From Candidatus Methanomethylicia archaeon (GTDB lineage: Archaea > Thermoproteota > Methanomethylicia > CALHIW01): a stretch of DNA of 36,664 bases. This document shows positions 6,140 to 36,664 of the stretch, piece by piece. Below the pieces are notes generated by a model that did no database searches, was not told the DNA's origin, and saw only the letters and a program-made list of their open reading frames with translations. Made by a program: the position numbers and the translations under genes. Position 1 is the stretch's first letter. Every line of letters begins with the position of its first letter. The stretch lies in NCBI GenBank assembly GCA_938030905.1, contig CALHIW010000013.1, positions 1-36,664 on the forward strand, written 5' to 3'.

Positions 6140-7141
6140 TAGAACCATCGGTTTTGAAGTTGAGAAGATGTTGTTTCCCCCTATGTTAAGATTGCGAGGA
6201 AAGATCATTTGGACCTTAAGAAGGAGGCGGAAAGAAGCTATGTGATGAATTGCTAAAAGATCAGGAGTTTTCAAAGCACTACGTTGATTTCACGGTCAAT
6301 TCGGTCATAGGACCCGTTAAAGGATTGATATCGCTCTACAATCAGGGGAGGGTGAAGAGAAAACCTGAGATAATAAAAGGAATAGTCTTTTCAGCCTTAG
6401 AAATAACATTTTGAGAATTAGCATCAAGCCAAATAAAAGGTTTCTCGATTTAACGAAGTATTTCCTGGCTTCCAAAAGATTTCGATAGAGTCGGTGGCTG
6501 CTTTTGACTGAAAAGAAGCTTATAATCCCGTTCAAGAAAAGCGTAGAGCAAAAGCGGAGAAATTCGCCTCATTCAACGTAAACTTAACAAATATAACTGC
6601 TTTCATAGATGGGGGAATAGAATGCTACGATCTAAGGGGCTTTACCACATTCACAGAACTTACAAGATAAAGTGAAGAAGGATTCAGAAACTCACAAAGT
6701 TCAAGCCGAAGACTTTGAAAAAGCTTTTGGAGAAGTATTCGAAGCGTGAAAGAAATAGAGCAAAGGACTTCATGTACAAGCTCACAACTTTGATAGCAAA
6801 GACTTAAAGAGCTTAAAAGCGGAGCAATTCTTAGGGCATCAAGAGAATCAGAGAAAGAGTTTTCACGACTCTAAAAAATGAACAGAAAGCTTTCAACATG
6901 GAACGCGAGGACTTTTCAATTCATGCTTGAATACAGGCTGGATTGGTTGGAACTACTTGTGAAACACGTTGATTCAAAAACAGCTCCAAGACGCCCTCTC
7001 TGCTCTGGAAGCTTAGCCTCCTATGAGGGTATGTTGATGAGATGTGAGAGATGTAATTTAGCGGTGGATAGAGATGTTGTAGCTGTTTTGAACCTTCAGA
7101 TGTGGGGGTTTGGATTCACCCCGAAGGCCTCAATGAGCTAA
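6140..7141 (+). pseudogene. tnpB: IS200/IS605-family TnpB (RNA-guided endonuclease) pseudogene, multiply frameshifted and 5'-truncated
   Basis: Fragments across frames: KHYVD, FNVNLTNI (RuvC-I, D to N), LLEKYSKRERNRAKDFMYKLTT, NRKLSTWN..FQFMLEY, partial Zn ribbon CERC, DRDVVAVLNL (RuvC-III); left boundary approximate. Confidence 0.85.
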
Positions 7142-7473: not shown

Positions 7474-9822
7474 CTAAAAGAAGGATTCAAGTCCTCTACC
7501 GGCAGATTTAATAAGCTTTTCAAGATCTTTTTCCTTCACCCCAACAGTTTCAAGTATTCTAGCGCATACTGGAATTAGCTGCTTTTCAATATAGTATTCT
7601 AAATCAACCTCATTTAGAGATGTTTTTGAATAGTGTTTAGCTCTTGTATATATTGGTCCAGTACCCTTGGTTACTATAAACCCTATATAATCCCCCTTAT
7701 CCACACTCCATTCATCTTCTTTAAGAGCATGAGCTACAACAACATGTGGAGCATTTACCTCATACTCTTCAAGCCTCTTTGCGAGCTGCTTCCATATAAT
7801 AAGGCTTTCTAAATTAACCTGCCTATTTCTTAGCTTAGCTACTCTATCCCTAACAAAATCTATTAAACTACTTCTATCTTCACCTTTAAGTAGCTTCTCC
7901 ACAAGGGCTTTCTGTATTTCCTTAGCATACCTACACCAGTCCCCTCTAACAGCCTCCAGCCCTACTATATCTAGAACACCATCAACAGTTATACCTGCAT
8001 ACTTCTTCTTAGCCTCTGTAAATACTACCTTACTATATATCTTATCTATTTTAGCTTCCAATCCAAGATCTCTATTAATCCATTCAAGAAGTTTACCTAT
8101 TCTCTCCTCATCATACTTTATAAATATGCTATCAGTATCTCCATAAATAACTTCTAATCCTAGTTCTGATGCCTTCCTTATGGTTTCAGAAATTATTCTA
8201 CGACCTAGACTCGCTACTGTTTCAGCTCCCTCTTTAAGATACCATCTAGCACCTACCCACCCCATATATCCATACATAGCATTAGCTAAAACCTTCAATA
8301 TCTTCTGAGCTGAATCTAGAAACCTATACTCTGCACTATCCTTAGGATACTTATTCATCTCCACTCTTACCCTCTCTCTCTCCCTAATGGTGGTTTCCAG
8401 AATATGGGTGAAGAAGCCCTTTCTATCCTGTATTATGCATGTATTAGCATCCTTAACCTCAATAATATTTCTAAACCCTACACATGGTAGAGGCTTTACA
8501 GTATCTGGTGATATATTGTATTTCAACATTAAGCTCGGATACATTGCCTTAAAGTCAACAACAGCTATTTCCTCATGTACACCCATTCTAGGTGTAAGTA
8601 CTCTCCCACCTGGATAGCTTGGGAAAACCTTTCCCTTCACTTTAGGTATAAGTTCACCACGTTTAACAGCCTCCCTCATTAAGAAGTTTTCAAGTCGGAA
8701 GCCTGCAGCCGCCGTGAAAACATGGTCTACAGGTATACCTGTAATTGCTGAGAGACTAAATACATAGTCTGATATCATGTTGAAAATAGTTAGATATGTT
8801 TTAGCTCTCCACATAGAGTATTTTAAAAGCATACTTCTCCCATCTTCATCAATCCAGTATTTTGAATGGTAGAATTCATCTATAGATTCAGTATCAACTC
8901 CAATACCTAAATACTCAGCAAGCTCTTCAATGGTTCCCCTTTCAAGCTCAGCTATTTCATCAGCATACTCCTTTAAGTCGAAGTTTATCCTACCAGCTAC
9001 TGAGAAGTGGCCGTAGAGGCTTTGATGAGGTTCACTATTAATCTTACCTACTTCAAGCTTTAACTCATGCCTACTACATCTCTTAAGTAGGAAGGGCCAG
9101 TGAAATGTGTTTAGCTTAAACCCAACAATTACGTCGGGATCAAAGCTTTTAATAGCTTCTATAAAGGACTTTAAAACTTCATATTCACTACCTGCGAACT
9201 GTATGTTTTCACCATTGCTTTTAGCTATTGAAATAGCTACAATAGGATTTATTTCAGGCTTTGGTGAGCCTTTATCAGAGTAATATATGAAGTCAACCCC
9301 TATAATTTTCAAGTTTGGATTAGAAGTAGTTTCAACTCTACGTATAGAATTGAGAATATATACTTTATCTACACCATCCCTAAATGTAACATCGGAATTC
9401 TCAACTTCAGCTTCATACCATGATGAGGGGGAAATGTCATTATCTAGTAGAAACCTATTAGAGAAACGTACATCATCCTCGAAAAGCTCCCCATTAAATA
9501 CTCTGCTCTTAATAGCTTTAATAACATCCTCGGATTTTGAGGGTATACATGAAACCTCAATAGTGTTCTTCTCATCACCGAAGCTTCTCTTAATAGTAGG
9601 TTTACATTCAATAACACCAGGTAGATCTCTAATACTGTTTAGAACCCTATCCAACTCCGCATCATTACCGATTACTACATAGAATTTCTGCTTCTGATTT
9701 AAACATCTAAAAATACATCTCCTACCATCTCTTGTAATCCCCCATATCCAAATTTCATCAAATCCATTAACCTGCTCAGCTGATACGTCAACTAGCCAGA
9801 AAACCTCCCTCATCATCCCCAA
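7474..9822 (-). CDS. polB: Family B DNA polymerase (PolB3-like) with degenerate 3'-5' exonuclease motifs
   Basis: Pol motifs DFKAMYPS, KVLANAMYGY, YGDTDS, KKKYAG, GLEAVRGDW intact; C-terminal PIP-like GLESFF; ExoI DFI, ExoII GFKLNTFH, ExoIII YSMWR lack acidic ligands. Confidence 0.95.
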   Translation of the reverse strand: MGMMREVFWLVDVSAEQVNGFDEIWIWGITRDGRRCIFRCLNQKQKFYVVIGNDAELDRVLNSIRDLPGVIECKPTIKRSFGDEKNTIEVSCIPSKSEDVIKAIKSRVFNGELFEDDVRFSNRFLLDNDISPSSWYEAEVENSDVTFRDGVDKVYILNSIRRVETTSNPNLKIIGVDFIYYSDKGSPKPEINPIVAISIAKSNGENIQFAGSEYEVLKSFIEAIKSFDPDVIVGFKLNTFHWPFLLKRCSRHELKLEVGKINSEPHQSLYGHFSVAGRINFDLKEYADEIAELERGTIEELAEYLGIGVDTESIDEFYHSKYWIDEDGRSMLLKYSMWRAKTYLTIFNMISDYVFSLSAITGIPVDHVFTAAAGFRLENFLMREAVKRGELIPKVKGKVFPSYPGGRVLTPRMGVHEEIAVVDFKAMYPSLMLKYNISPDTVKPLPCVGFRNIIEVKDANTCIIQDRKGFFTHILETTIRERERVRVEMNKYPKDSAEYRFLDSAQKILKVLANAMYGYMGWVGARWYLKEGAETVASLGRRIISETIRKASELGLEVIYGDTDSIFIKYDEERIGKLLEWINRDLGLEAKIDKIYSKVVFTEAKKKYAGITVDGVLDIVGLEAVRGDWCRYAKEIQKALVEKLLKGEDRSSLIDFVRDRVAKLRNRQVNLESLIIWKQLAKRLEEYEVNAPHVVVAHALKEDEWSVDKGDYIGFIVTKGTGPIYTRAKHYSKTSLNEVDLEYYIEKQLIPVCARILETVGVKEKDLEKLIKSAGRGLESFF

Positions 9823-10047: not shown

Positions 10048-10320
10048 ATGGTTAGAGGAGTAATATTGAGGATTGGCTATAGTACAGGTAATAGAAGACT
10101 TAGTAGAAGAATTAGGGAATGTATAGTGAAGTTTAATGGATGTAACAGTGCTAGTGAAGCAGCAAAGCTAATAGGTAGAAGAATTGTAGCTACATTTAGG
10201 AAGAGGAAGTATCTAGGTAAGGTAATTCGAACACATGGTAATAATGGAGCTGTTGTTGTAAAGTTTAAAAAAACACCTCCAACAGAGTATTTTAGCGAAA
10301 TTATTTTAGAAGCTATTTAA
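10048..10320 (+). CDS. rpl35ae: 50S ribosomal protein L35Ae (eL33), divergent
   Basis: 90 aa, basic; EAAKLIGRRIV and GKVIRTHGNNGAVVVKF match the L35Ae signature. Confidence 0.8.
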   Translation: MVRGVILRIGYSTGNRRLSRRIRECIVKFNGCNSASEAAKLIGRRIVATFRKRKYLGKVIRTHGNNGAVVVKFKKTPPTEYFSEIILEAI

Positions 10321-10501: not shown

Positions 10502-11392
10502 ATGATGAGAATTACTGGTCAGGCTGTAGGTATGGATTTATTATCTTTTATCGTTAGTAATTTATGGATTATACTATTCCTATTCTTCTTCCTAACACCA
10601 GTAATTCAGAAGTATATTTTAAACTCTGCGAGGAGAAATGTTTTAATGAGGCTTTCAAGAAAGAGGAAAGCACAGGTTATAACACTAATACATAGACAGG
10701 AAACTATAGCCTTTCTAGGAATACCTATCTCTAGATATATTGATATTGAGGATAGTGAAGAGATTCTAAGAGCTATTAGAATGACTCCTCCAAATACGCC
10801 AATAGATCTTATAATTCATACTCCAGGTGGAATAGCTTTAGCAGCAGCTCAAATAGCAGCTGCACTTAAAGCACATTCAGGTAAGAAAACAGTTATAATA
10901 CCACACTACGCTATGAGTGGGGGGACTCTAATAGCTTTAGCAGCAGATGAAATATTGATGGATCCGCATGCTGTTTTAGGACCTATTGATCCGCAAATCA
11001 TTGATCAGAATAGATCATACTCAGCAGCATCAATACTTAAAGTATTGGAGAAGAAGGATATTAACAGTATTGATGATAGAACCCTAATACTAGCTGAGGA
11101 GGCACGTAAAGCAATAGATCAGATGAAAACATTTGTAGAGTGGCTTTTATCAGGTAAATGTGGGGAGGAAACAATTAGGAAAGTCATTGAGGAATTGGTA
11201 AGTGGGAAATATACACATGACAAGCCAATATTTCCGGAGGATATAAAAAAGCTTTTAGGAGAATGTGTTAAAACCGAAATACCTGAGGAAGTATATACGT
11301 TAATGAGATTATACAAGATGGAGATAAGACCTAGAAGACCAGGTGTTGAATTTACTCCAATAGTACCTACAAAACCACAAGCTCAACAGTAA
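10502..11392 (+). CDS. SDH-family ClpP/crotonase-fold serine protease with N-terminal membrane anchor
   Basis: Hydrophobic N-terminus; LIHRQE, DLIIHTPGG, AMSGGTLIALAADEI, LGPIDPQ, THD motifs. Confidence 0.88.
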   Translation: MMRITGQAVGMDLLSFIVSNLWIILFLFFFLTPVIQKYILNSARRNVLMRLSRKRKAQVITLIHRQETIAFLGIPISRYIDIEDSEEILRAIRMTPPNTPIDLIIHTPGGIALAAAQIAAALKAHSGKKTVIIPHYAMSGGTLIALAADEILMDPHAVLGPIDPQIIDQNRSYSAASILKVLEKKDINSIDDRTLILAEEARKAIDQMKTFVEWLLSGKCGEETIRKVIEELVSGKYTHDKPIFPEDIKKLLGECVKTEIPEEVYTLMRLYKMEIRPRRPGVEFTPIVPTKPQAQQ

Positions 11393-11448: not shown

Positions 11449-12042
11449 TTAAATTAGAAAGTCTGCTAAGGTTTTTTTCTTCTTAATTCTCGGAAATTTA
11501 TCAGTAATATCGAAAACACCATCTGGATGATATGTTATAAGTTCAAGATCGAGAAGCTTCCTTATAAATCTCCTAGGATTCTGTATCCCCATCTTCTCAA
11601 GATCATTCATAATCTTTAAATCACCAACACTCCAATGTTCACTTAAATATTCAATAACTCTAAGCATTTCAGGATCTTTTAAAAGCTCATCAACATTAAC
11701 CTTTCCAACTCCAGTATTTACTTTGACTTTAACAATATCCTCTCCAGGATGAGGTATGTTGATAGTAGGCTTTACCACACTAGGCTCTAAACCTTTAACT
11801 CTTATAGCTTTAGGAACTGATTTTTTAAATAGTGGAAAGGATAATTCTGGGGGAGTGAAGAATTCACCTTCAGGCTCAACAATTCCTCTAGATAGAAGCT
11901 CCTCTATAATTACTGATAATGTGATTGATGATATATTTTCAGTATTAGCCCATTTAACCATTTCATCATAGGTTACAATACTACGTTTCTCAATAAACTC
12001 CTTAGCCTTCATAACCAATCTATTAAACAAATCACTCGACAA
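11449..12042 (-). CDS. Hypothetical protein, probably two winged-helix-like domains and C-terminal PIP-box-like motif
   Basis: TTG start preceded by GGAG; helix-then-strand endings EELLSRGIV and RKLLDLELI; Pro/Val-rich linker; ends KKKTLADFLI. Confidence 0.65.
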   Translation of the reverse strand: MSSDLFNRLVMKAKEFIEKRSIVTYDEMVKWANTENISSITLSVIIEELLSRGIVEPEGEFFTPPELSFPLFKKSVPKAIRVKGLEPSVVKPTINIPHPGEDIVKVKVNTGVGKVNVDELLKDPEMLRVIEYLSEHWSVGDLKIMNDLEKMGIQNPRRFIRKLLDLELITYHPDGVFDITDKFPRIKKKKTLADFLI

Positions 12043-16524: not shown

Positions 16525-17206
16525 ATGCAGATACCATTGGAGATTATAAATAAGCTTGAGGATTGGTATGGTAGAAACTGGTGGAGTAAAGAGGAGGAGT
16601 TTGATGGGATACTCTATAATCCATTTAAGAACTTAATTTTCACAATTCTCTCACAGAGTACCTCAAGTATAAATGCTTATAGGGCATATAGGGGTTTAAG
16701 CTTAAAGTTTTCAATAAATCCTAAAACCCTAGCAAATACTAATGAGGAGGAGATAGCTGAAGCTATTAGGACTAGTGGACTATATAGAGTTAAAGCTAAG
16801 AGAATTAGGGAGGCATCAAAATACATAATCGAGGAACTGAATAGTAGACTAGATGAAGTGTTAAAGCTACCAAGAGAGAAAGCACGGGGAAATACTTAAG
16901 CAGATTCCAGGTGTAGGTGATAAACAACTGATGCAGTTTTATCATGTATATATAGTCCATGTGAGGTAATAGTTATTGATACTCATATGGATAGACTGGC
17001 TAAACATTTAGGTATAGCTAGTGGGGGTATGAAGTATAGTGGAGCACAGAATGCCTTAATAAACTTTATACTTGGAGTAGAATTCTAAGTTGGAAGTAGA
17101 GTAGAGTTTAGGATTACTATGGCTTCTTGCAAAACATACATGTAAAACTAGAAATCCTAGATGTAGTGAGTGTGTTTTAAACATTGTATGTTCCAAGATA
17201 ATATAA
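16525..17206 (+). pseudogene. nth: Endonuclease III (HhH-GPD, 4Fe-4S) pseudogene
   Basis: PF..LIFTILSQ, GLYRVKA; after a frameshift at G4 near 16886, LKQIPGVGDK; after a further shift VIDTHMDR; C-terminal CKTRNPRCSECVLNIVC; several frameshifts and stops. Confidence 0.9.
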
Positions 17207-17304
17207 GTATTTATTTGGAATTTTAATACTACTATACTTAGTATTATTTTGAGTTAAACTTGATAAGCTATATATTCTCTATTGGGTATGTTGATAGAGA
17301 GATT

Positions 17305-17940
17305 ATGTCGGAGAAATTTAGTAAGAAATGGAGTAGAAATGAAAACTCTATTCTCAGCCGAGTAAAGAGGTTATTCCACTCAAAACAGTCACTTAGCGAG
17401 AAGATATTAATGGTAACATTTAGAATTAATAGTTTAAAAACGAGACTTGAACAGGAATCCTATAAGCTTCTACAGCGTGATAGAGATTTATTTGAGAAAT
17501 GCATCCAGGCATTAACATCTAGGGATGAGCTTAGAGCTAAAATATATGCAAATGAGGTTGTAGAGCTTAGAAAGATTACGGGATTAGTTCTGAAGAGTAA
17601 GCTTGCCTTAGAGCAGGTTTCGCTAAGACTTGAAACCATACGTGACTTCGGAAACCTAGTAGCAGTAGTAGCTCCAGTATCGAGGGTTGTAGGAGACTTA
17701 AGAAGTCAGCTCTCAGGATTTATGCCTCAAATAGGTAGTGAACTTGGAGAAATTAGTGAAAGCCTACAGACAATGATTAATGAGGCTGGAATTAATGTTC
17801 AGACAGGATTTGAAATTGAGGCATCAAATGAAGCGCAGAAAATACTTAGTGAAGCAACAGTAGTTGCTGAACAGAAAATGAAGGAGAAACTACCGGAAAT
17901 ACCAATACATCTACCAATAGCATTAAGGGAGAAGATATAG
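17305..17940 (+). CDS. cdvB: ESCRT-III / CdvB-family (Snf7 domain) protein; ATG 17305 preferred to TTG 17260
   Basis: RDRDLFEKC...RAKIYANEVVELRK...LEQVSLRLET, MPQI..EL, EAQKILSEA...LPEIP. Confidence 0.88.
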   Translation: MSEKFSKKWSRNENSILSRVKRLFHSKQSLSEKILMVTFRINSLKTRLEQESYKLLQRDRDLFEKCIQALTSRDELRAKIYANEVVELRKITGLVLKSKLALEQVSLRLETIRDFGNLVAVVAPVSRVVGDLRSQLSGFMPQIGSELGEISESLQTMINEAGINVQTGFEIEASNEAQKILSEATVVAEQKMKEKLPEIPIHLPIALREKI

Positions 17941-25893: not shown

Positions 25894-26743
25894 TTAATAT
25901 CTAGTGTATAAATACTTTGTGGGGCATAAGTACCCCTGAAGTTTACCAGCCTCAGTAACCATTACGTAAGGAATTATTAATGGATTACCTCTACTTATAG
26001 ATGCAATAATTGATTTCAATATGTTTTTAATTATTAATTTATAAATTGATTTGCTATTAATGAATTCCATCATTTTAATACCAGCTGAATTCCATCTAGA
26101 TTTCTTAAATGCTTCCTACATAGATGTAGGAGTATAATGCTTTGCAGTATAGTCTAATAGTATCCTCCACTTGTATCCTTGAGTAACTACGTGTCTAAGT
26201 AAATGATAATCTTCATATGCTGCAAGCCATGCTGGTGGGTTCCAGCTTGCAACTATATCAGTTATTAGATATTGTATTTGTAGTATAACCTCTAAAAGCA
26301 TAGGGATTTATAGATGTTACATCAATAATTCTACTTGGATATATTTTATATAACCTTTTTAAATTCCAGAGAGAATATTCAGTAGCGTACGTTAAGTTTA
26401 TATTTATATGTAATCCATGAACTGCACCTACACCACCATCTAGTATGCTTGTAAGTTTAGTAAACCATCCACTAGTTAACTCAATATCGTCGTCGATAAA
26501 TACAAAGGAGTCCGTATCAACATACTTAACTCCGAGTCTTCTTGCATATGCAAGCTTAGCTCTAGTCTTCACTATAATAGCATCTGGAAAAATTGATTTA
26601 ATAGTATGAACTGTATCATCATATGAATAATTATCAACAACTACCAAATGACAAATAGGTACTTCACGTTTAATTGATGATAGACATCGTTTAAACCATG
26701 GTTTACAACTATTATACGTACACATCACAGCATCCAGTACCAT
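25894..26743 (-). pseudogene. GT2 glycosyltransferase pseudogene
   Basis: VMCTYNS, VVDNYSYDDT, FIDDD; frameshift near 26270 into AYEDYHL frame; TAG at 26116-26118, then frame continues (KKSRWNSAG...GYL) to TAA at 25894. Confidence 0.85.
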
Positions 26744-27029
26744 ACATACTAAATTTACTAAAGAAACTTATAAACTGTAAACTTAGTTGCAGTTAAGGTT
26801 TATGGAGCATATTGGATAGACTAACTTAAACAATGCCTTGCCACATGATTTCGCTTTTTATACTTCTTTACTGGTCCTAGTCTAAGTTACAAATGCTTTT
26901 CGAATTGCGAATCAAGGTAAAACAGTGGAGGTCATTCCTTCGCTATAAGAAAGCTTAATTACGCAACAAAACAACATTAAGCTTCCTAACATAAGGTTAA
27001 GAGATATATTGATAGGATAGAATATATGT

Positions 27030-27665
27030 TTTAGATGATGATGTTAAGATAAGGCTTTGGGTTCAAGGAATGTTTTCTTTGGAGAGTTTGTTTAGATGTT
27101 TAAGTGGTTTCTCGAAGCTGTTAGAAAGCTAAGATATTTAAGCATAATGAGGATTCGCTTACTCATAAGGTTAGCTGTATTAATGGCTGTTTAAGTTACG
27201 GGTTATGACCATTATGTTGGCTCAGATCCTTAGGTCAAGGCTCTGCTATTATTGGTTCAAAGTTAGGAAGCTCCAGTCTATGTAAGCTAGGTAAGAGGGA
27301 TATTGCAGTTAATGAAGCAAACTGAGGGTGGAAAGCTGTGACTATTTGTTGCTACAGTGTGAATTCCAAAGAATAGCCGTACATGCTAACTAATAGTGTT
27401 CAGCAATGAATACTGTATATGTTCTTAAAGAGGATTAGGCTCTACCTTATAAGTCATTAATTCTAGTTGATAAGGCTCATGGTATTTGAATGTTCCTTAA
27501 GAGCTTTAGGATCAAATAGACACATATTACTGCGGATTAAGAAACGGGATTGAAAAGCTATTCAGAGCTCTGAAGGATAGGATGAAGGTTTCACAATAAC
27601 TTTCCATCTAAGAGGGAGAAGGAAAGATTAGGAAAATTTTGATGACTGATGTTTGCTATTTCCTC
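27030..27665 (+). mobile_element. Second, heavily decayed IS6-family transposase remnant
   Basis: Fragments EAVRK, IAVNEAKLRVE, LILVDK, LRNGIEKLFRALKDRMK, HNNFP; ends not resolved. Confidence 0.75.
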
Positions 27666-27669
27666 AAAA

Positions 27670-27930
27670 GCTAAGGATTTACCTTTAGTACTATTGGAGG
27701 CTATGGCTTTAGATAAGGCGATCATTGCATTTAAAGCCGGCAGTGTATCTGAGGTTATTAGGATAAATATAATAATAGTATTCTTACAGAAACTGAATAT
27801 AGTTTAATTAAAAATTCAATAAAAAATTAATTTGCAATGAAGAATTACATAGAAAATTAGAGGCTATACTCACATACAGCTTGTAAGTTTCCTACATACG
27901 AAAATTTTATTAAAACTATAAAAACACTTA
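27670..27930 (+). pseudogene. C-terminal remnant of a GT4 glycosyltransferase
   Basis: DLPLVLLEAMALDKAIIAFKAGSVSEVIR matches the GT4 donor-binding segment; 5' part absent. Confidence 0.7.
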
Positions 27931-27969
27931 AGACAGTAAAAATATAAATTTTAAAGTTTCACTTCTACT

Positions 27970-28992
27970 ATGACCCATATAGTTTATATAGTTGATTCAC
28001 TATCTTCATTTAGACTACGTGACTATAAGATACTTAAGGAGATGGGATTTAAAATAGAGGTTGTAGAGGCACAATCAATTATTAGATTAGCGAGTAAAAG
28101 CTTTATTAAAGGTTTTAAGGGGGATGTTTTTTATGCATGGTATGCTACCTCACCCGGTCTTACAGCAGTAATTTTAGGTAAATTTTACCGAAAGCCAAGC
28201 ATCGTAAATGTTGCTGGATTTGAAGTCTGTAAGCAAGAAGATATTGGATACGGTTTAAGAATAACCAACCCTGAAAAAGTTAAATATGTAAAGTATACTT
28301 TACGAAATGCTACAAGAATTATTGCTGCTTCTCAATATTTAGCTGATGTGATTAATGAAGTTGAACCTCAATCTAATACTGAAGTTATATACAATAGTGT
28401 TGATACTTCTAAGTTTTCCCCCTCACAAGCCTTAACCAAGAAAAGATTACTTGTAAGTATTGGAATTTTATCCAAGGAAAATATTGTTAAAAAGGGCTTC
28501 CATACTTTACTTAATGCTATGCCGATTATTCTGAAGCATGATAAAAATATTAGGTTAATACTTATTGGAGAGAAGAGAGATGGCTACCCAATACTACTTA
28601 GAATGGTGAAAAAACTAAAAATTGAGAATAACGTTACTTTCACAGGGTTCATTGATGAAGATATGCTGATATCTATTCTAAGAAAAGCAATGGTATATGT
28701 GCATCCAGCTGGTCATGAAAGCTTTGGTATCTCTATAGCTGAGGCTATGAGCTGCAGCTTACCAGTTATAACAACTAGAAGAGGAGCTATACCAGAGGTT
28801 GTTGGTGATGCTGGATTATATGTTCCATTTAATGATGAATACTCACTAGCTGAAAACATTCTAACACTACTAAGCAATGAAGAACTTAGAAGAGAACTCT
28901 CTGTAAAGGCTAGGGAGAGAGTTGTTAAAATGTTTGATGTAAGGATTAGAGCTAAAAGATTAAAGGAGTTAATTAGCAGAGTTACAGCTTAA
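27970..28992 (+). CDS. GT4 (GT-B fold) glycosyltransferase
   Basis: VIYNSVD, KKG, HESFGISIAEAMSCSLPVITT, IPEVVGDAG. Confidence 0.92.
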   Translation: MTHIVYIVDSLSSFRLRDYKILKEMGFKIEVVEAQSIIRLASKSFIKGFKGDVFYAWYATSPGLTAVILGKFYRKPSIVNVAGFEVCKQEDIGYGLRITNPEKVKYVKYTLRNATRIIAASQYLADVINEVEPQSNTEVIYNSVDTSKFSPSQALTKKRLLVSIGILSKENIVKKGFHTLLNAMPIILKHDKNIRLILIGEKRDGYPILLRMVKKLKIENNVTFTGFIDEDMLISILRKAMVYVHPAGHESFGISIAEAMSCSLPVITTRRGAIPEVVGDAGLYVPFNDEYSLAENILTLLSNEELRRELSVKARERVVKMFDVRIRAKRLKELISRVTA

Positions 28993-29030
28993 AGATTTCC
29001 TTAACTATATTAACCATTCTTCATAAATCC

Positions 29031-29051
29031 CTCCATTATTAAATGATGGAG
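29031..29051. terminator. Imperfect palindrome between convergent genes
   Basis: CTCCATTATT-A-AATGATGGAG (9/10 arms); function not established. Confidence 0.25.
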
Positions 29052-29166
29052 AGAATGAAGGTTTACTAATTCATTGAATACCTTTCTCATCTCTACCAAT
29101 ATGGATTTGTTTATACTACCTTGACAAATCAGTCTTTACCGTTTTAGGTCTCTCAATAGATGCTTT

Positions 29167-30510
29167 TTATATATTACCAACACCTAAATAAACGAATCCT
29201 AACTTCGAAACCTCCTTACTCAAAACATTCCTTCCATCTATGATTACCCTGCACCTCATTTCTCTTGCCATCTTTTCTAAATTAAGGCTCTTAAATTCCT
29301 CATGATCAGTTGCGATTATTACAGCATCAATGCCTTTAAAATCCTCTTTCCATTTAGCTCCGAATTTTTCTGCGTCTCCTCTACTGCAGAGAGGATCGTA
29401 GGCGTAAACCTCAACATTCCGTTTCTTTAGTTCTCTTATTATTTCTAAAGCTGGACTATTTATGAATTCCTTAACGCCACCCCTAAAACTTAATCCTAAA
29501 ACCAAAATTCTGCTACCATTTAAAAGCTTCTCAACTTCGTTAAGTCCCTTTATTGCCAGCTCAACTATATGCTTCGGCATTGCATCGTTTATCTCTCTTG
29601 CAGTTCTTATAAGTCTTGGATTTGTCTTTTTAGCTAAGTTTATTACAAACCAAGGATAGACTGGAATACAGTGTCCGCCAACACCGGCTCCAGGCATGTG
29701 GAGATGACAGTAGGGCTGGGTGTTTGCAGCTTTAAAGATCTCTAAAGCATTTAACCCATGCTCTTCACACCATAAGGCCAACTCATTTGCTAGGGCAATA
29801 TTAACGTCTCTGTATATCCCCTCAAAAACCTTGACAGCCTCGGCGGTTTTTATTGAGCTAACTGGGATAACCCCCTTCTTGTTTATTGCCTCATAGATTC
29901 CAATAACAGCTTCAAGGGTTTCCTTATCACTTGCACCAACTATCTTTGGATATTTTTCAGTTATATCTCTTATTGCGGTCCCGCTCATTACCCTTTCAGG
30001 AGCGTGGGCTAAACCAAATTCTCCAAGCTTTAATCCACTTTTCTCTAGAATTGGAATTAAGCTTTCAGTAGTGCCTGGGGGCATTGTAGCCTCGGTTATA
30101 ACTATATCTCCCTTCTTCAAACCTTGAGAAATTTTATAGGTAACATCATAAACAGGCTCAAGCTTAATTTCCCTGTCATTAGCTAAGGTTGGAACCAGAA
30201 TTACCATAACATCTGCCTTTTTTGCTGCTTCAACACCATCATTTGTGGCTTCTAGCCTACCCTCCTCAACGTTTCTTCTTACGAGTTCATCTAATTCAGG
30301 CTCTTCTTTAATGTGATTTTCTCCCTTATTTACCATCTTAACAATTTTTTCGTTAACATCAACACCTACTACCTTAGTGTGTTCTGCAAATATAGCGGCT
30401 AAGGGCAATCCAATCCTACCAAGACCATAAACAGCTATAGAAACCTTTCCTTCTTTAAGGACCCTCTTAACCTCCTCCCTATTCAGACCAATCAGCTTCA
30501 CCTCAATCAC
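29167..30510 (-). CDS. UDP-N-acetylhexosamine 6-dehydrogenase (WecC/WbpA family)
   Basis: GLGRIGLP, ILVPT, PPGTT, PER, RDVNIALANE, GVGGHCIP, YDP, IIDGRN. Confidence 0.93.
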   Translation of the reverse strand: MIEVKLIGLNREEVKRVLKEGKVSIAVYGLGRIGLPLAAIFAEHTKVVGVDVNEKIVKMVNKGENHIKEEPELDELVRRNVEEGRLEATNDGVEAAKKADVMVILVPTLANDREIKLEPVYDVTYKISQGLKKGDIVITEATMPPGTTESLIPILEKSGLKLGEFGLAHAPERVMSGTAIRDITEKYPKIVGASDKETLEAVIGIYEAINKKGVIPVSSIKTAEAVKVFEGIYRDVNIALANELALWCEEHGLNALEIFKAANTQPYCHLHMPGAGVGGHCIPVYPWFVINLAKKTNPRLIRTAREINDAMPKHIVELAIKGLNEVEKLLNGSRILVLGLSFRGGVKEFINSPALEIIRELKKRNVEVYAYDPLCSRGDAEKFGAKWKEDFKGIDAVIIATDHEEFKSLNLEKMAREMRCRVIIDGRNVLSKEVSKLGFVYLGVGNI

Positions 30511-30874
30511 CTAGTCTAACAGCTTTGCTCCCCTTGGTATTTTCTAAGGTCTTTATAGCAATTTTTAAGGCATGCAATTTATCTTTTTCAGACACAATCA
30601 ACCCTCCCATTTACAATACATTCAATGAAATACTTAAACTCTACTTTTAAAGGCTCCATTTTCTGACTCTTTACTTCTCTCATCCATTTCTCATCACATA
30701 TTCCACGTAATCTTTAAAAGTCTTCGTTTCAAACTGGAGGCAACTTCTTTAGTTCTCTTGAAGTTTGTATCTGTCACTTCAATTAGTTTAATTTCCCCCT
30801 CTAGCTAATTCTGAATAGATTCTGGCATGATGAAAACCTATATTTTCGACGTCAACAACTCCGACTTTTATCAT
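30511..30874 (-). pseudogene. Gfo/Idh/MocA oxidoreductase (WbpB/WlbA-like) pseudogene with large internal deletion
   Basis: N-terminus MIKVGVVDVENIGFHHARIYSELAR (decayed GxG.xG) and C-terminal KVEFKYFIECI...LHALKIA, only ~360 bp in total. Confidence 0.75.
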
Positions 30875-32488
30875 GATAACACTATTTGAAATCTAATAAA
30901 ACTTCGCTCATAAATAAGACTTTGGGTACTATGTAATTATAGGTTGCTCTCTCTGTTATGCTTATCTTAGTGAATGACTTGTTATGGATATAAGTGTTTC
31001 AAATTAATTATGAAGTGGTTGTTAGTGTACCTTATGAGGACTATGACAAGTATGTTTCTAAGCTCTTCTGTTGAGACTAGTGTATCAATTTATGTTTGTA
31101 TATTTGAAACTCCATCAGTCTCTCTATTTGGTTTGTAATGTAGGTATTTCTACATCTTCTATTACTAGCTTGTAAAGAGAATCATGAAGCCTATGTTTCT
31201 AACTGTAAATGATGATTATTTAGTAGCCTTCTTCCTCAAGGTCATCAGCTATCTTGCAGAGCCTCTAAGTATCTTTCAATTCTAGCTTTCAGCCATTTCA
31301 TCTCTTCTTTACCAAGTTTACCAGCATGAGGAATACTTATTGACTGCTTCTCGACATCTGTCTTCTTTGAGTTATTCTAGAGGTTGGTGTAGATGTTTCA
31401 GGTATGTAGTATGCTCAGCCACCCTTTTAGCCTTAACAACATTTATTAATTCCCATCATCTAATATAAGGATCTTAGCCTTTAATGTGGCTATTTACCGC
31501 TAATCCAGATGTAAAGCCTTCAAATAGGAGTACATGAACATTACTCATTCCCACTCTAACACTCTTACTTCTGCGGAGCAGCATCACCATTCCAGACTTA
31601 CCATTCATCCTTGCCATGGAAGCTTGGAAGTCATCTCCTCTAAGAAGCTATGGCAGTCCCTTTGAGAAGTTTAATAGTAGTATTGATTCCCTGAAGGCAG
31701 CCTTATAACTCACTGAAACGAACTCTAGGAGCTTCATTCAGACATCGTAGAGTACCTATTATGTCTACATCTAAGAGCTCAAGAGTTAAGAGTCTGCCTT
31801 CTCTGTGATTTCCTCACCTTGAACCATCTTTCCTGCATCTGTGATTAGGATTTTTCAGTATAAGCTATACCTTCCGTAGAGATAATTATGGGAATCTTTT
31901 TACCTGCAAGCTGATTGATAAGCTGCTTCTCCTCAACTTAATCAGCTGGGTGAGGTTTCTCTAAACATAAATAACCATTAGAATGCTCAATGAGATATAA
32001 AAAGATCCATAGTAGTGAAGTGATATACTCTTTCAGGCTTATTTTTATCTTCGTATTATATGCATAATATAGAGAAAATGAAAGGTAGGCCTAAAAGCTA
32101 ACTTACAACTGCACACCATGAATTTTTCTGAAAAGTAGCTTAAGTTTTATAGGCTGAGGACAAAATTTCTTAGGAGGCCGCAGAAGATAAATCTCAAAGA
32201 GGAGGTATGAGGTGATAGTTTTAATATCAATAAAATTCTACTCTATATAATGTATTCAAAAATTTGACCTGAACTATTACTTCATGGAGGTTTTCAAGGG
32301 AATAAATTCATTTCCTTCAGTCCCGGAGGACACATAACCTAACTATGTAAGCTGGCAGATTTTTGGGATATCTTTTTATATTAAAGTTTTTATACTGAAT
32401 GGCCTGTTTAAAAAGGGTAGTGAATAAGGGAATAGTAAAACTGGTAGGAAGAGGAGTAGTAAGGACATGAAAATGGAGGTGAATAAAA

Positions 32489-33547
32489 ATGAAAATAGCA
32501 TCTATTATTGGAGCAAGACCAAACTTCATTAAGCTTGCACCTGTTTCAAGGGAGATAAGGGGAAAGTTTAATGAAATCATTATCCACACAGGGCAGCACT
32601 ATGATTATGAGATGGATAAAGTTTTTTTCGATGAGCTTGGGATTCCTGAACCTGATTACCATTTAGATGTTGGCTCCGGATCCCATGGAGAGCAAACTGG
32701 GGAAATGTTAAAGAGGGTGGAAAAGGTACTAATTAGGGAGGAACCGGATTTAATCTTGGTTTACGGTGATACAAATACTACTTTAGCAGGAGCTTTAGCA
32801 GCTTCAAAGCTACACATTAAAGTCGGCCATATTGAAGCTGGATTGAGAAGCTTTGATAGGAGGATGCCGGAGGAGATAAATAGAATTTTAGTTGATCATT
32901 GCTCTGACTTATTGTTTTGCCCTACTAAAACAGCAGTTAAAAACCTGGAAAAAGAGGGAATTGTAAGAGGTGTCTATCTAACGGGGGATGTGATGGTTGA
33001 TGCTCTGCAAAGAAGCATAGGAATTGCAGAGAGGAACTCCAGAATTTTGGAGAAGCTAAATTTGGGTCTAAGAGATTATTATTTGGCAACTATTCATAGA
33101 GCAGAAAACACAGATGATTTTAAAAGATTAAAGGCTATTGTAGAGGCATTTTGTGAAATTGGGAACATAGTATTCCCCTGTCATCCAAGAACTGAGAAAT
33201 GTTTAAAAAACTTTGGCTTGTGGGATACACTAAAGCAAGTTAAAGTTATAAAACCAGTTGGCTATCTTGATATGCTTATATTGGAGAAAAATGCAAAGAA
33301 AATTATAACAGACTCTGGTGGTGTGCAAAAGGAGGCATATATTTTCAGGGTTCCGTGTATTACGTTAAGGGAGAATACAGAATGGATTGAGACCGTAGAA
33401 GATGGATGGAATCTACTTGTTGAAGCAGATAAAGAAAAAATTGTTAAAGTGGTGAGGGAGTTTGAGCCTAGGAATAAACAGAGAAATGTTTTTGGTGATG
33501 GAGTGGCAAGTAGGAAAATCGCAGAGATAATAGGAGGAATAAAATGA
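32489..33547 (+). CDS. wecB: UDP-N-acetylglucosamine 2-epimerase (non-hydrolysing)
   Basis: GARPNFIK, HTGQHYD, GDTNT, HIEAGLRS, PEEINR, HRAEN, TDSGGVQKEA; GGAGGTG RBS. Confidence 0.96.
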   Translation: MKIASIIGARPNFIKLAPVSREIRGKFNEIIIHTGQHYDYEMDKVFFDELGIPEPDYHLDVGSGSHGEQTGEMLKRVEKVLIREEPDLILVYGDTNTTLAGALAASKLHIKVGHIEAGLRSFDRRMPEEINRILVDHCSDLLFCPTKTAVKNLEKEGIVRGVYLTGDVMVDALQRSIGIAERNSRILEKLNLGLRDYYLATIHRAENTDDFKRLKAIVEAFCEIGNIVFPCHPRTEKCLKNFGLWDTLKQVKVIKPVGYLDMLILEKNAKKIITDSGGVQKEAYIFRVPCITLRENTEWIETVEDGWNLLVEADKEKIVKVVREFEPRNKQRNVFGDGVASRKIAEIIGGIK

Positions 33548-34450
33548 GGAAAAATTAAAAAATCTCTTTGTACACTTATCTTCTCCATCATTTATTCAGA
33601 TAGACTTGGATATGCTAGGAAGTCTTTAATGTGTGGGTTGCGTATTATAAGGCAAGAAGAGATTGTTAAATTTCTTGATAGGACACTAAAAAGACATTTT
33701 GTAGTCAAAACAATATTTTCATAGTTTGCAGGAATTCATGTTTCCATAGTAATTCCGCCCCTAAGGCATTTAGATGAGATCAGTTGTAGTTGTTGGCAGT
33801 TATGAAGTGGTAAAGTGTACTAAAGTAGGATGTGAAGCATTGTTAAACCCATGTTCCTATAGTGGAGTATATGTTGGGAAATGTAGAAAAAGTTTTAGTA
33901 GTTAATAATTTCTTAAAGTTAGATGCTGTTAAGAATTTAGGTTATGGATGGCAAAATATTTTATGATTATAGGAAGCCCAACCTGAAGAGAAAAAGAAAA
34001 TTTAGTAACGAGAAGGGTTTTAGCGATACTTAGAGAAGAATTCGGCTGGAGGGTTTGGATGTACTTGTAGAATTAGCTAAATTTCTTCCAGATGTAATTT
34101 TTAGTGATGGTATCCAAGAAGATACGTTTAATAGACTTAAAGAAGACGCATCTTCAAATGTAGAATTCTTGGTTCTTTAACCAACATGAGCCTTACTCTC
34201 TATTATTAAAAAGCAAAACTTTATTGTCGGCTCTTGATGTGGGAAGCTTCTAAATGCTTTATGTGAAAATGCTTTGTGAATGTATGCCTGTTAAAATTGA
34301 GACAGTGGAATTCCAATAGTAATTGGTAATGTTGGATTTTATATTCCTTACGAAGATGCAAAGGCAACAGCAGAGGTGAGGAAAGGATTAGGAAAACATT
34401 TTCAATAGGGAATTAAAAGGAATAATAAATATTTGACATGGAGGTTATAA
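33544..34450 (+). pseudogene. Heavily decayed GT4 glycosyltransferase pseudogene
   Basis: Fragments PSFIQIDLDML, GSYEV, NALCE, MLCECMPV, GIPIVIGNVGFYIPYEDAKATAE; many stops and shifts. Confidence 0.75.
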
Positions 34451-34494
34451 GAGGTAAAGGAATCAATAACTAATCCTTTTTATTTTGTGCTCTA

Positions 34495-34700
34495 AAGGTT
34501 AAGACTGTAGTAGACAGAATGAACTATGTCATAGAAATATTCAAAAGAAAGAAAGTTTTGTGTCTAGAATGCGTTGATGGAAGACTGACTCACGGAAGGA
34601 TTCAAAAACAGAAAATTCCTATATTTAAGATTATAAGTGATGCTAAAGATATATGAGATATCAGATATAAATAAATGATTTTAAATTAGAGACTTAACTA
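34495..34700 (+). pseudogene. Probable class I methyltransferase 5' remnant
   Basis: VVDRMNYVIEIFKRKKVLCLECVDG resembles a decayed K.VL.LGC.D motif I. Confidence 0.4.
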
Positions 34701-34772
34701 GATATGATAATATGAAAAACCTAATAGGAGGAATGATGAAATGATATATTATCTAGGATTGGGGTAGAATGT

Positions 34773-35834
34773 ATGAGGGTAACTCTTATAGGGGCTAATC
34801 CTTGGAAAATGATTAGGTTAAGGCTCATAGCTAAATCCCTAATAAAGCATGGATTCGATGTTAATGTCTTTACGCCTAGAGTTGATGTGAGATTTAGACC
34901 AAAAGTTCTCTCAGCATTTCTAAGATACTCGGCGTTTATTATTCAGGAGTTATTTATGGGTTCAGATATAATTCACTTCTTTAATATTCCTGACATATAT
35001 GGTTTAGTTCCTCTCTTAAGGAAGAGCTTTGGAAAAGCTAAACTAATTTATGATGTTAGAGGTCCTTGGGGTGATGAGCTAGTAGAGTTTGGCTATAAAT
35101 CATTGCATGGTTTGGCTGAAAGCATAGAGAGAATATTAACAGTTAAGGCTTCACTGGTTACTACGGTTAATAATATACTTGCTGAGAGAGCTAGAAAATG
35201 GGGTGCAAGAAGAGTATATGTTATCCCTAACTATCCAAGTATGGATTTTAAACCCTTAGTTAATCCTTTAGAGTTTAAACGTAAACTGGGTTTGGAGGGG
35301 AGGGTGTTGCTTTTTGTTGGTTCATTTACGAGTATTGAGTGTGCTTTAGATGTTGTATTCATTTTTTATAGGGTTTATAGGAGGATGCCTGATGTTAGAT
35401 TGGTGATGGTTGGAGATGGGGGTTTAATGCCTGAAATTAGGAGGAGTATTTTAAAGTTAGGATTAAGAGATAAGGTAATATTAACAGGATGGATTCCTCA
35501 TAGGGAAGTTGCGGATTGGATTTCTATAGCTGATCTATGTCTTCTACCTAGAAGAGAAGAGGGGGAAGCTTCCAAGTTTTTCGCTCCCGAATCTATATTG
35601 AAAGTTAATGAGTATTTAGCTTTAGGTAAACCTGTAGTTACTACTCCAGTTGGAGGCTTTAAGAATGCACCATCACCACCATTCATTATAGCTCCATTTA
35701 ATAGACTTAGTGATGCTATAATTAAAGCTTTAGAGGAACCTATTAAAGTTAAAGATCAATTAAAATATACATGGAATACATCGGAGAAAATCCTCATTAA
35801 AGCATACAATGAGTTAATTGAAAATAGTGTATAG
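34773..35834 (+). CDS. GT4 glycosyltransferase
   Basis: IYDVR, VIPNYP, LFVGSF, MVGDG, TGWIPH, LKVNEYLALGKPVVTT. Confidence 0.9.
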   Translation: MRVTLIGANPWKMIRLRLIAKSLIKHGFDVNVFTPRVDVRFRPKVLSAFLRYSAFIIQELFMGSDIIHFFNIPDIYGLVPLLRKSFGKAKLIYDVRGPWGDELVEFGYKSLHGLAESIERILTVKASLVTTVNNILAERARKWGARRVYVIPNYPSMDFKPLVNPLEFKRKLGLEGRVLLFVGSFTSIECALDVVFIFYRVYRRMPDVRLVMVGDGGLMPEIRRSILKLGLRDKVILTGWIPHREVADWISIADLCLLPRREEGEASKFFAPESILKVNEYLALGKPVVTTPVGGFKNAPSPPFIIAPFNRLSDAIIKALEEPIKVKDQLKYTWNTSEKILIKAYNELIENSV

Positions 35835-35972
35835 ATGTAATCGATTAAAACATAATTATGGCAAAGCAACGTATGAGGTGGCGTGTTGATGAGGAAGTAT
35901 TTGAGTGAGGTGTAAATTTCACTATGGCTAAATATACTAGTTGAAGTATAACATATTATGGTAAATTGATGA

Positions 35973-36664
35973 TTATTGATAAATTCTGAATATTCTAAAG
36001 TTGTATAATCTATCGATTAAGCTAATGTTAATATGTGAATTAAACTTAATAACCCCCCCTTTAAGAATAGATCTAGCCTCAAGAGGGAGATCATCAATGT
36101 TTAAAATTAAAATTGTAGCATTATATTTCTCAATAATACTATAGATACTTGTTAAATTTGCATTTCTTGGAATTGCTACTATCTCCCTATCTGTTATCCA
36201 GGCAAAAACTCTTGATGGACCATGTATAGCTATAATTTCCCCATTATCAACACTACTCATTACTCTATTAGCTAAATCTGTTAGCTGCTTTGTTGATGAT
36301 TGATTTATTGTTTTCAATACATCTTGATATTGATATGTATGGTATGTTATGGCTAGGAGGGCTATGATAAGAATAGCTAATAATAGCTTTAAACTATTAA
36401 GCCTAAATGTTCTGGATCCTCTAGTAATTTTAAGTCTTACTTGGAGTTTTGAGGATACTATGTTAATTATGGATGATGATGTTAACGTCATCATTATGAA
36501 TACTGAGAGGAGAAATCTCTTCTCAAGCCAGCCGAGTGGAAAGTATAGTGAGTATAGTATCATATGTGATGCTATAAATATTAATGGTATAGCTTTAACT
36601 ATACTATTTACTTGAGTTAAGTATAGTATTGTTAGTATTATGAATGGAGGGGTTATCCATAAAT
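35973..36664 (-). CDS. 3' part of a polytopic membrane protein, possibly GT-C (ArnT/PMT-like) glycosyltransferase; 5' end outside window
   Basis: Frame is open from the window edge; TM segments, EKRFLL motif, then a soluble C-terminal domain. Confidence 0.6.
   Translation of the reverse strand, partial: LWITPPFIILTILYLTQVNSIVKAIPLIFIASHMILYSLYFPLGWLEKRFLLSVFIMMTLTSSSIINIVSSKLQVRLKITRGSRTFRLNSLKLLLAILIIALLAITYHTYQYQDVLKTINQSSTKQLTDLANRVMSSVDNGEIIAIHGPSRVFAWITDREIVAIPRNANLTSIYSIIEKYNATILILNIDDLPLEARSILKGGVIKFNSHINISLIDRLYNFRIFRIYQ

Follow-up and report, generated by a model that had tools for sequence, protein, structure and literature searches.

A PolB3-type archaeal DNA polymerase with a replaced proofreading site and an intact polymerase site

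Here we describe a gene for a family B DNA polymerase on contig CALHIW010000013.1 of a Candidatus Methanomethylicia archaeon (assembly GCA_938030905.1), within the stretch from position 1 to 36,664 that was analysed as a whole and is called the window. Its product is of the PolB3 type, keeps a complete polymerase site and has lost three of the four acidic ligands of its proofreading site. The gene is an ordinary member of a widespread, apparently undescribed PolB3 variant. Accounts of archaeal PolB3 generally present a high-fidelity enzyme that senses uracil, and degeneracy has been described for PolB2 alone. We propose, with a probability of about 0.55, that the enzyme is a PCNA-tethered, proofreading-free polymerase for short-patch or damage-tolerant synthesis.

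Results

Gene, start codon and family assignment

The gene lies at 7474-9822 on the minus strand and encodes a family B DNA polymerase of 782 residues, read without an internal stop from a listed TTG start at 9822 to a stop codon at 7474-7476. Two ATG codons, at 9816 and 9813, lie just inside this start (9813-9822, minus strand). As the close relatives begin with MREVF and an A/T-rich stretch is found about 30 nucleotides upstream, translation probably begins at the ATG at 9813. This codon is three codons into the listed open reading frame (ORF) and would give a protein of 779 residues. The residue numbers of a preliminary description of this DNA, made from the sequence alone, are thus right when counted from the TTG and probably three too high for the frame that begins at the ATG. 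Numbers given here count from the TTG, in the 782-residue form.

Pfam matches comprise PF00136 (DNA_pol_B; E 2e-65, 221.8 bits against a cut-off of 23) and PF03104 (DNA_pol_B_exo1; E 2.7e-23, 83.1 bits against a cut-off of 23). Nine NCBIfam models of equivalog, subfamily and superfamily rank (archaeal DNA polymerase I/II, pol2) match as well, all under their curated cut-offs: the top match, NF004421, reaches 232.3 bits against 570, and TIGR00592 reaches 230.9 against 239.95. In a HMMER search of the Protein Data Bank (PDB), the best solved relative is 5mdn_A (E 5e-160, query residues 8-768), followed by Pyrococcus and Thermococcus PolBs at about 1e-85 and by the PolB1 structure 1s5j at 5.5e-41. 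We take the latter to be the Sulfolobus solfataricus PolB1; its PDB entry says only DNA polymerase I. An AlphaFold2 model built from an 18-sequence alignment has a mean predicted local distance difference test score (pLDDT) of 89.4 and a predicted template modelling (TM) score of 0.86, with the exonuclease (exo) domain predicted confidently too, and the nearest fold found by Foldseek is again 5mdn_A, the family B polymerase of Pyrobaculum calidifontis (TM score 0.85, 35% identity).

In trees that used the genome's own PolB1 as outgroup and were built without PolB2, the query nests among the PolB3 sequences of Thermoprotei, Methanocellales and Sifarchaeum. Together with the gap between the 5mdn and 1s5j matches, this placement upholds the PolB3-type assignment made in the preliminary description. 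The archaeal PolB3 group is itself defined by phylogeny, as set out in passages of Makarova 2014 (PMC4104785) and Kazlauskas 2020 (PMC7544198), and the 5mdn polymerase is called PolB3 in a passage of the latter.

The proofreading site is replaced and the polymerase site is kept

The gene and its diagnostic segments are as follows, all on the minus strand.

7474-9822, PolB3-type family B DNA polymerase gene (ORF and translation, Pfam, 5mdn_A match, AlphaFold2 and Foldseek)
9775-9789, uracil-pocket position 1, DVSAE (A15; 5mdn alignment, coordinates verified)
9676-9696, uracil-pocket position 2, QKQKFYV (Q45-K46; 5mdn alignment, coordinates verified)
9280-9300, Exo I, GVDFIYY (D177 kept, catalytic Glu replaced by I179; 5mdn alignment, DNA re-read)
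9094-9123, Exo II, GFKLNTFHWP (Asn replaced by K236, catalytic Asp by H241; 5mdn alignment, DNA re-read)
8800-8826, Exo III, LKYSMWRAK (Y335 kept, YxxDD changed to YxxWR, catalytic Asp replaced by R339; 5mdn alignment, DNA re-read)
8533-8562, motif A, VVDFKAMYPS (D423, steric-gate Y428; DNA re-read)
8263-8301, motif B of the fingers, ILKVLANAMYGYM (K510, N514, Y517, G518; DNA re-read)
8125-8151, motif C, VIYGDTDSI (both catalytic Asp, D562 and D564; DNA re-read)
7477-7500, C-terminal tail resembling a PCNA-interacting protein (PIP) motif, GRGLESFF (DNA re-read)

A residue-by-residue HMMER alignment sets FDIEVY of 5mdn opposite VDFIYY of the query at Exo I, GYNSNGFDWP opposite GFKLNTFHWP at Exo II, and YVLDD opposite YSMWR at Exo III. 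Three of the four acidic ligands are therefore replaced (Glu by I179, Asp by H241, Asp by R339), and D177 alone remains. The preliminary description had reported all three motifs as disabled with three acidic ligands gone, and both the alignment and the re-reading of the DNA bear this out. Its statement that polymerase motifs A, B and C are intact also stands: the catalytic D423, K510, D562 and D564 are all present, and D423, M427, Y428 and P429, as well as K510, D562 and D564, are invariant in alignment A1.

The altered uracil-pocket residues that it had noted reappear in the alignment, where DVSA stands opposite DATY of 5mdn and QKFY opposite PYFY, so that the query has A15 for Tyr and Q45-K46 for Pro-Tyr. 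Positions 15, 45 and 46 are presumed to form the pocket from work on the Pfu and Tgo enzymes, in which the equivalent residues are Tyr7, Pro36 and Tyr37. The PIP-like tail, likewise described before, was found again on re-reading; it has LxxFF at the extreme C-terminus, without the Gln of QxxLxxFF, and the tails of relatives are similar. F781 is invariant in A1, and pLDDT falls below 50 at residues 777-782, as expected of a free tail, which we predict to be a PCNA tether.

The congener, genome G001, carries identical replaced residues in a protein of 89% amino-acid identity, as does an independent metagenome contig, and a subclade of 17 sequences shares the replacements at identities as low as about 40%. 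These comparisons set aside chance and errors of assembly, and show the exo-motif replacements to be real and heritable.

The exonuclease domain is under somewhat relaxed purifying selection

Compared with the congener by the Nei-Gojobori method, the gene as a whole has a ratio of non-synonymous to synonymous substitution rates (dN/dS) of 0.16, the N-terminal domain (NTD) one of 0.15 and the polymerase domain one of 0.14. The corresponding value for the exo domain is 0.35 (dN 0.063, dS 0.18). All of these come from one independent pair, since the metagenome scan yielded just two loci and one of them is almost the same as that of the congener. The ratio of mean pairwise identity in the exo domain to that in the polymerase domain is 0.80 in the query's subclade, 0.89 in the dead clade of Bathyarchaeia and 0.90-0.91 in two intact clades. 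Of the domains, the NTD is the one least conserved within the query's subclade, with an NTD-to-polymerase identity ratio of 0.57 against 0.75-0.86. These values indicate that the dead exo domain is retained as a selected scaffold, somewhat relaxed.

One alternative is a decaying or non-catalytic gene, either on its way to becoming a pseudogene or coding for a PolB with a structural role only, as in the classical view of PolB2. The lost exo motifs, the weakly conserved NTD and the absence of PolB3 from one family of the same class (f4, see below) would fit it. We nevertheless consider it very improbable, given a full-length frame without stops, the dN/dS of 0.16, polymerase catalytic residues kept across the whole dead clade, and a state that is the same from 90% to about 37% identity.

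A large lineage shares the replaced proofreading site

Our census held 213 PolB3-like sequences and the genome's own second PolB (214 rows): the query, 8 close proteins, 75 named genome loci, 24 same-class loci and 105 representatives of 50%-identity clusters. We had removed 44 of 149 representatives for lengths outside 700-900 residues, being fragments or forms with inteins, together with the partial sequences among the named loci (5 of 80) and the class loci (4). All four acidic exo ligands are kept in 132 of the 213, two or three in 10 and at most one (hereafter exo-dead) in 71, in a sample taken nearest the query, in which the share of dead forms is not that among all PolB3. The polymerase residues D, K, D and D stand at the motif A, B and C positions in 211 of the 214 rows, the query among them; of the remaining three, two carry Arg in place of the Lys and the third aligns poorly. 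The exo-dead state with an intact polymerase persists from 90% to about 37% identity to the query.

Exo-dead rows come from Bathyarchaeota/Bathyarchaeia, Methanomethylicia, Methanodesulfokora (Korarchaeia), Geothermarchaeota and metagenome-assembled genomes (MAGs) of Thaumarchaeota/Nitrososphaerales, and the rows of Desulfurococcales, Thermoproteales, Thermofilaceae, Acidilobales, Sulfolobales and Methanocellales are intact throughout. The single carboxylate that is retained varies, being the Exo II Asp in Bathyarchaeia and Korarchaeia and the Exo I Asp in the query's subclade; the Exo I Glu is kept in none of the 61 rows of the dead clade. The query's subclade has a conserved replacement motif of its own at Exo III, YxxWR: W338 and R339 are at least 85% conserved in its 13-row set, where Thermoprotei have D-D (YxxDD).

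The uracil pocket follows a similar course. Of the 132 intact rows, 100 retain all three pocket residues (query positions 15, 45 and 46), as do 6 of 10 partial rows and 10 of 54 other dead rows; in the query's subclade no row of the 17 does. The pocket Tyr in the position-15 column is kept in 105 of 132 intact rows against 0 of 17 in that subclade. The N-terminal alignment behind these counts is less certain for distant representatives. The predicted loss of the uracil sensor thus accompanies the predicted loss of the exonuclease.

The gene, which the preliminary description had presented as a singular oddity, is thereby one member of a large exo-dead PolB3 lineage in many public genomes, as both the census and the trees below attest. 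This membership lowers the surprise of the single gene and raises a clade-level question.

Two details of the census concern individual records. Three contigs with Bathyarchaeia-like exo-dead PolB3 (L023, L046, L047) are filed in bacterial records (Acidoferrum, Limnocylindrales, Acidobacteriota) and are probably misbinned. The exo-dead PolB3 frame of one Nitrososphaerales MAG (L052) spans 1073 residues from stop to stop, of which about 335 precede the match; they may be an N-terminal extension or merely an open upstream frame.

Phylogeny points to a possible single early loss

A full-length FastTree of 154 rows, in which only every fourth intact representative was retained, gathers the dead forms in a single clade of 61 rows (61/61 dead, support 99), whose sister is a 56-row, mostly intact clade of the Thermoprotei type. 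Since decay of the exo domain could itself draw dead sequences together, we also used the polymerase domain alone (query residues 372-770) in quick IQ-TREE runs of 73 rows. Under LG+G4 all 36 core dead rows fall on one side of a branch with a Shimodaira-Hasegawa-like approximate likelihood ratio test (SH-aLRT) support of 98, and under LG+C20+F+G4 with posterior mean site frequencies (PMSF) the same rows and columns give the same branch at 98.5. The dead forms are monophyletic in three of four trees; the fourth is taken up below among the points that weigh against our reading. A single early loss of proofreading in PolB3 is the better-supported history on these alignments, though not a settled one. 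We propose as an exo-dead PolB3 lineage those sequences that share one side of this branch in trees without the exo domain and keep at most one ligand, among which the query is found.

The query's own subclade has 8 rows in the polymerase-domain trees (support 99-100) and 17 in the full-length tree (support 99). Its partners there are metagenome proteins, a Geothermarchaeales protein at 50% identity, and rows from Geothermarchaeota and thaumarchaeal MAGs.

Within the one taxonomic class of the host, four separate PolB3 lineages appear in the full-length tree (L085-L109), which points to PolB3 replacement or lateral transfer. Numbering the families of the class f1-f9, the PolB3 of f1 falls with Geothermarchaeota-like sequences, that of f2 is the sister of Bathyarchaeia and that of f9 joins unnamed representatives; the PolB3 of f3, f5, f6, f7 and f8 adjoin the Thermoprotei type. 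In f6 and f8 we see a second, independent partial decay (DE|NV|HA or HS).

Other polymerases and the association with PolD

The host genome, 62% complete in 110 contigs, holds two PolB genes: the query and a PolB1 on contig C39, which matches 1s5j_A over its full length (E 1.9e-237) and keeps DE/ND/YD and the polymerase residues. A second, canonical PolB3, for which the preliminary description had suggested a check, was not found in this 62%-complete genome. Most genomes of the class likewise carry a single PolB of about 800 residues (PolB3-type) beside one of about 870 (PolB1-type). The PolD subunit DP2 is present. DP1 (PF04042) was found in the congener but not in the 62%-complete host genome, which also yielded no Y-family polymerase.

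Across 62 genomes of the class, families f1-f9 differ as follows.

f1 (own genome and congener), f2 and f9: PolB3 exo-dead, DP2 in 8 of 9 genomes
f8 and f6: PolB3 with one or two ligands kept, DP2 in 6 of 6
f3: PolB3 intact, DP2 in 0 of 4
f5: PolB3 intact, DP2 in 0 of 10
f7: PolB3 intact, DP2 in 1 of 1
f4: PolB3 match in 0 of 32, DP2 in 18 of 32

Families with a dead or partly dead PolB3 thus have DP2 in 14 of 15 genomes. Among 50 named genomes, DP2 occurs in 22 of 25 with an exo-dead PolB3 and in none of 22 with an intact PolB3 of the Thermoprotei type; it is also present in the Sifarchaeum, Methanocellales and Methanobacteriota genomes. Of the 25 exo-dead genomes, 23 have a PolB1 orthologue and one more has a contig-end fragment; all 22 genomes of the Thermoprotei-type set have the orthologue. 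Pooled over 75 genomes, 35 have no PolD and an intact PolB3, 34 have PolD and a PolB3 that is not intact, and the two remaining combinations count 3 and 3. The link between PolD and exo-dead PolB3 that these co-occurrences draw is suggestive, not demonstrated.

As a separate observation, Y-family polymerases (PolY) occur in 17 of the 32 f4 genomes and in none of the 30 other class genomes, 28 of which have PolB3, so that PolB3 and the Y-family polymerase are mutually exclusive in the class. This exclusivity corresponds to one phylogenetic split and counts as one event.

Discussion

Proposed role and points against it

In the mechanism that we favour, the enzyme would be a family B PolB3 that polymerises DNA and cannot proofread. 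Its exo domain would persist as a folded, selected scaffold in which three of four metal-binding carboxylates are replaced and the guanidinium group of R339 probably fills the former metal site. With three exo ligands and key pocket residues lost, it would be expected to leave its own errors in place and to read through template uracil. The LxxFF tail would tether it to PCNA. PolB1, with its exo site intact, and PolD would carry out bulk, proofread synthesis; since they are able to do so, the query most likely performs short-tract work at the clamp, such as gap filling, strand displacement at Okazaki-fragment ends, or extension on damaged or deaminated templates. These sub-roles are not told apart by our inferences. 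The roles suggested in the preliminary description (error-prone synthesis, uracil or lesion bypass, or primer extension in the manner of Pol alpha/zeta) likewise stand as proposals. The gene itself would descend from an old PolB3 lineage in which proofreading had already been lost.

Several observations weigh against this proposal. Purifying selection still acts on the exo domain (omega 0.35), which implies some function for it, and this may be an altered nuclease or binding activity. The polymerase motifs show no relaxation relative to intact PolB3, and the active site thus bears no mark of a translesion polymerase. The negatives for other polymerases cover the 62% of the host genome that is represented, and class families with an intact PolB3 also have no PolY, so that its absence does not single out the dead form. 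The association with PolD has exceptions on both sides: the genomes of L010, L042 and L052 are exo-dead and have no DP2, and DP2 occurs together with an intact exo site in f7, Sifarchaeum and Methanocellales. The gene tree offers five independent contrasts, of which about two run in the expected direction, none in the opposite one and three are uninformative (sign test p 0.5). Finally, in a FastTree of the polymerase domain with all 214 rows the dead lineages do not form a clade; they branch as a grade beneath the intact one, with weak support at the key nodes (30-60).

At the level of the clade, a broader history seems possible to us and is put forward tentatively. In it, PolB3 lost proofreading once and early, in Bathyarchaeia, Korarchaeia, Methanomethylicia, Geothermarchaeota and deep thaumarchaeal groups, that is, in TACK archaea with PolB1 and PolD, and proofreading was kept where PolD is missing. 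The exo-dead PolB3 would then be a clamp-bound, uracil-blind counterpart of Pol alpha and Pol zeta that arose from a three-polymerase division of labour, and in the query's subclade loss of the uracil sensor would have followed that of the exonuclease. Although the result for the single gene is more modest than this pattern, a conserved PolB3 lineage with a dead exo domain and an intact polymerase that tracks PolD would point to such a division of labour in uncultured archaea. It would offer a natural parallel to the origin of eukaryotic Pol alpha and zeta and leads to the hypothesis that PolB3 retains proofreading only in hosts that depend on it for bulk synthesis. The lineage may also be a source of natural exo-minus, possibly uracil-tolerant family B enzymes.

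Alternative explanations

The main rival is a true replicative subunit, either an extender of primase products in the manner of Pol alpha or a strand-specific replicase that is proofread in trans by PolD-DP1, PolB1 or another nuclease; we judge it unlikely, while giving it real weight. PolD (22 of 25) and PolB1 (23 of 25 and a fragment) co-occur with the exo-dead form and could supply such proofreading, and the gene is strongly conserved (dN/dS 0.16). According to PMC13136892, the PolB of T. kodakarensis takes part in lagging-strand synthesis, and Pol alpha is a known exo-dead family B replicative enzyme in the part of Kazlauskas 2020 (PMC7544198) that deals with it. Yet the query has no C-terminal zinc-binding or other C-terminal-domain module for a B-subunit or primase, only one Cys in its last 120 residues and a PIP-like end, and no primase or replisome gene is adjacent. 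PolB3 is moreover absent from all 32 f4 genomes of the same class and hence dispensable in close kin, and passages of PMC7544198 and PMC5418573 describe PolB3 as non-essential where tested.

A second alternative holds that proofreading is retained through other residues, for example a different metal site made of D177, H241 and a nearby acidic residue. The conservation of D177 in the subclade, the frequency of His at the Exo II position there (P0001-P0008, P0123, L042, L052) and the purifying selection on the exo domain can be read in its favour. We find it improbable all the same. Three of the four carboxylates are gone and an Arg occupies the Exo III Asp position; other subclade members have V, I, F or L at the Exo II position (P0009, P0122, L010/L034 and P0136, respectively), so the His is not required; and different dead subclades keep a different single carboxylate, as expected of decay and not of redesign. 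Single changes to Ala at these exo positions are what make the standard exo-minus Vent, KOD and 9N enzymes.

A virus or mobile-element polymerase lodged in the chromosome is equally hard to credit as the decaying gene considered above. A fragment of TnpB type (Cas12f-like TNB domain) lies just downstream at 6878-7141, the class has four separate PolB3 lineages, and the PolB3 phylogeny is known for lateral transfer (PMC4104785, PMC5418573). Against this, the neighbours are housekeeping genes (L35Ae, an SDH-type protease, PNP, radical SAM, methyltransferases), synteny with the congener extends over about 14 kb without the TnpB fragment, the window shows an even G+C (GC) content, and a single PolB3-type gene beside a single PolB1-type gene is the usual set in the class.

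Comparison with known polymerases

The query shares its domain order, polymerase motifs and hydrophobic C-terminal tail with the PolB3 of 5mdn, which has DIE, FD, YxxDD and DATY/PYFY where the query has DFI, FH, YxxWR, DVSA and QKFY. The PolB3 of Sulfolobales (Dpo3) belongs to the same PolB3 group and is reportedly a dispensable third polymerase beside PolB1 (PMC7785828, PMC8100216). Unlike the query, both Sulfolobales rows of the census (L043, L075) keep all four exo ligands (DE/ND/YD), sit in the intact Thermoprotei-type clade and come from genomes without PolD, which removes the possibility, raised in the preliminary description, that the gene is simply a member of the Sulfolobales Dpo3 group.

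The best functional analogy is PolB2 (Dpo2), which like the query is a family B enzyme that coexists with proofreading replicases and, as predicted for the query, does not proofread. In the sources as far as they cover it, Dpo2 is an active polymerase devoid of exonuclease that extends mismatches and lesions (PMC8764526), PolB2 has an unconserved Exo I, no Exo III and a motif C with one Asp (PMC7544198), and it sits with arCOG07300 and an inactivated RadA (PMC4104785). The query differs, as had been proposed earlier, in having YGDTDS with both motif C Asp and a recognisable Exo III scaffold; Exo I and II are recognisable too, and there are no arCOG07300 or RadA neighbours.

In Pol alpha and Pol zeta an active polymerase is likewise joined to an exo domain that is inactivated but retained, according to passages of PMC7544198 and PMC2527604. 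They represent the same evolutionary solution as the query and are only distant relatives (PDB matches at E 1e-38 to 1e-26); unlike them, the query has no zinc-binding C-terminal domain or B-subunit partner, in keeping with its one Cys in the last 120 residues. Engineered exo-minus Vent, KOD and 9N enzymes and polymerases for threose and xeno nucleic acids (TNA/XNA) share the query's fold, taking Foldseek ranks 2-50 at a TM score of about 0.8. Engineered exo-minus archaeal PolBs carry Ala at the Exo I Asp and Glu, and the query can be seen as their natural counterpart. These are laboratory point mutants of euryarchaeal enzymes, whereas the query's predicted loss is natural, old and joined by changes in the uracil pocket.

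Inactivated family B proofreading is described only for PolB2 and for eukaryotic Pol alpha, Pol zeta and the C-terminal half of Pol epsilon (epsilon-C) in passages of Makarova 2014, Kazlauskas 2020, Rogozin 2008 and Tahirov 2009. A PolB3 in which only the exonuclease is dead is not described in the relevant passages of PMC4104785, PMC7544198, PMC2527604 and PMC2669801, nor in those of PMC7281927, PMC12680538, PMC5418573 and bioRxiv 10.1101/235028. We found no description of it in the literature searched; the supplements to Kazlauskas 2020 and Makarova 2014, with their motif logos, alignments and tables, may record the state.

Genomic surroundings

The polymerase gene stands alone on its strand, and the features around it are these.

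6878-7141, plus strand, TnpB-type fragment of 87 residues with only a Cas12f1-like TNB domain (PF07282, E 7.8e-07)
downstream of the polymerase gene, ORF of 79 residues without assignment
10048-10320, upstream and divergent, L35Ae ribosomal protein gene
10502-11392, upstream and divergent, SDH-type ClpP-like protease gene
11449-12042, minus strand, protein of 197 residues with a PolB1-binding-protein-2 (PBP2) domain (PF22511) at residues 124-170, E 2.8e-11
16525-16899, plus strand, ORF of 124 residues, HhH-GPD base-excision repair family, E 6.4e-13

Window neighbours are otherwise housekeeping genes (PNP, radical SAM, methyltransferases) and genes of sugar metabolism, GC content is even throughout, and no tRNA was found in the window. 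The congener preserves this gene order for about 14 kb, apart from the TnpB fragment. When 13 window genes were searched by tblastn against six other loci of the same class, PolB3 alone matched, and synteny is not kept there. Nothing in these surroundings, as judged from the sequence, suggests a mobile element or a conserved partner gene. A scan for sigma-70 promoters and terminators, which returned fewer promoter-like sites than shuffled sequences and is not applicable to archaeal promoters, was not used.

The ORF at 6878-7141 resembles the remnant of a TnpB-type transposon gene and is absent from the otherwise syntenic locus of the congener. The PBP2-domain gene lies 1.6 kb from the PolB3 gene and is kept in the congener at 86% identity; tblastn gave no match to its protein in the six other same-class loci or the other loci compared. 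In the passages of Yan et al. 2017 (PMC5418573) that bear on it, PBP2 is not found in Thaumarchaea, Korarchaea and Thermoproteales, and no interaction between PBP2 and PolB3 was seen. The HhH-GPD ORF gives the impression of being short for its family and may be truncated or split; the next ORF, at 17260-17940, has no Pfam match. From 26258 to 36664 the window holds glycosyltransferases, a UDP-glucose/GDP-mannose dehydrogenase and a UDP-GlcNAc 2-epimerase, in what looks like an ordinary cell-envelope sugar locus.

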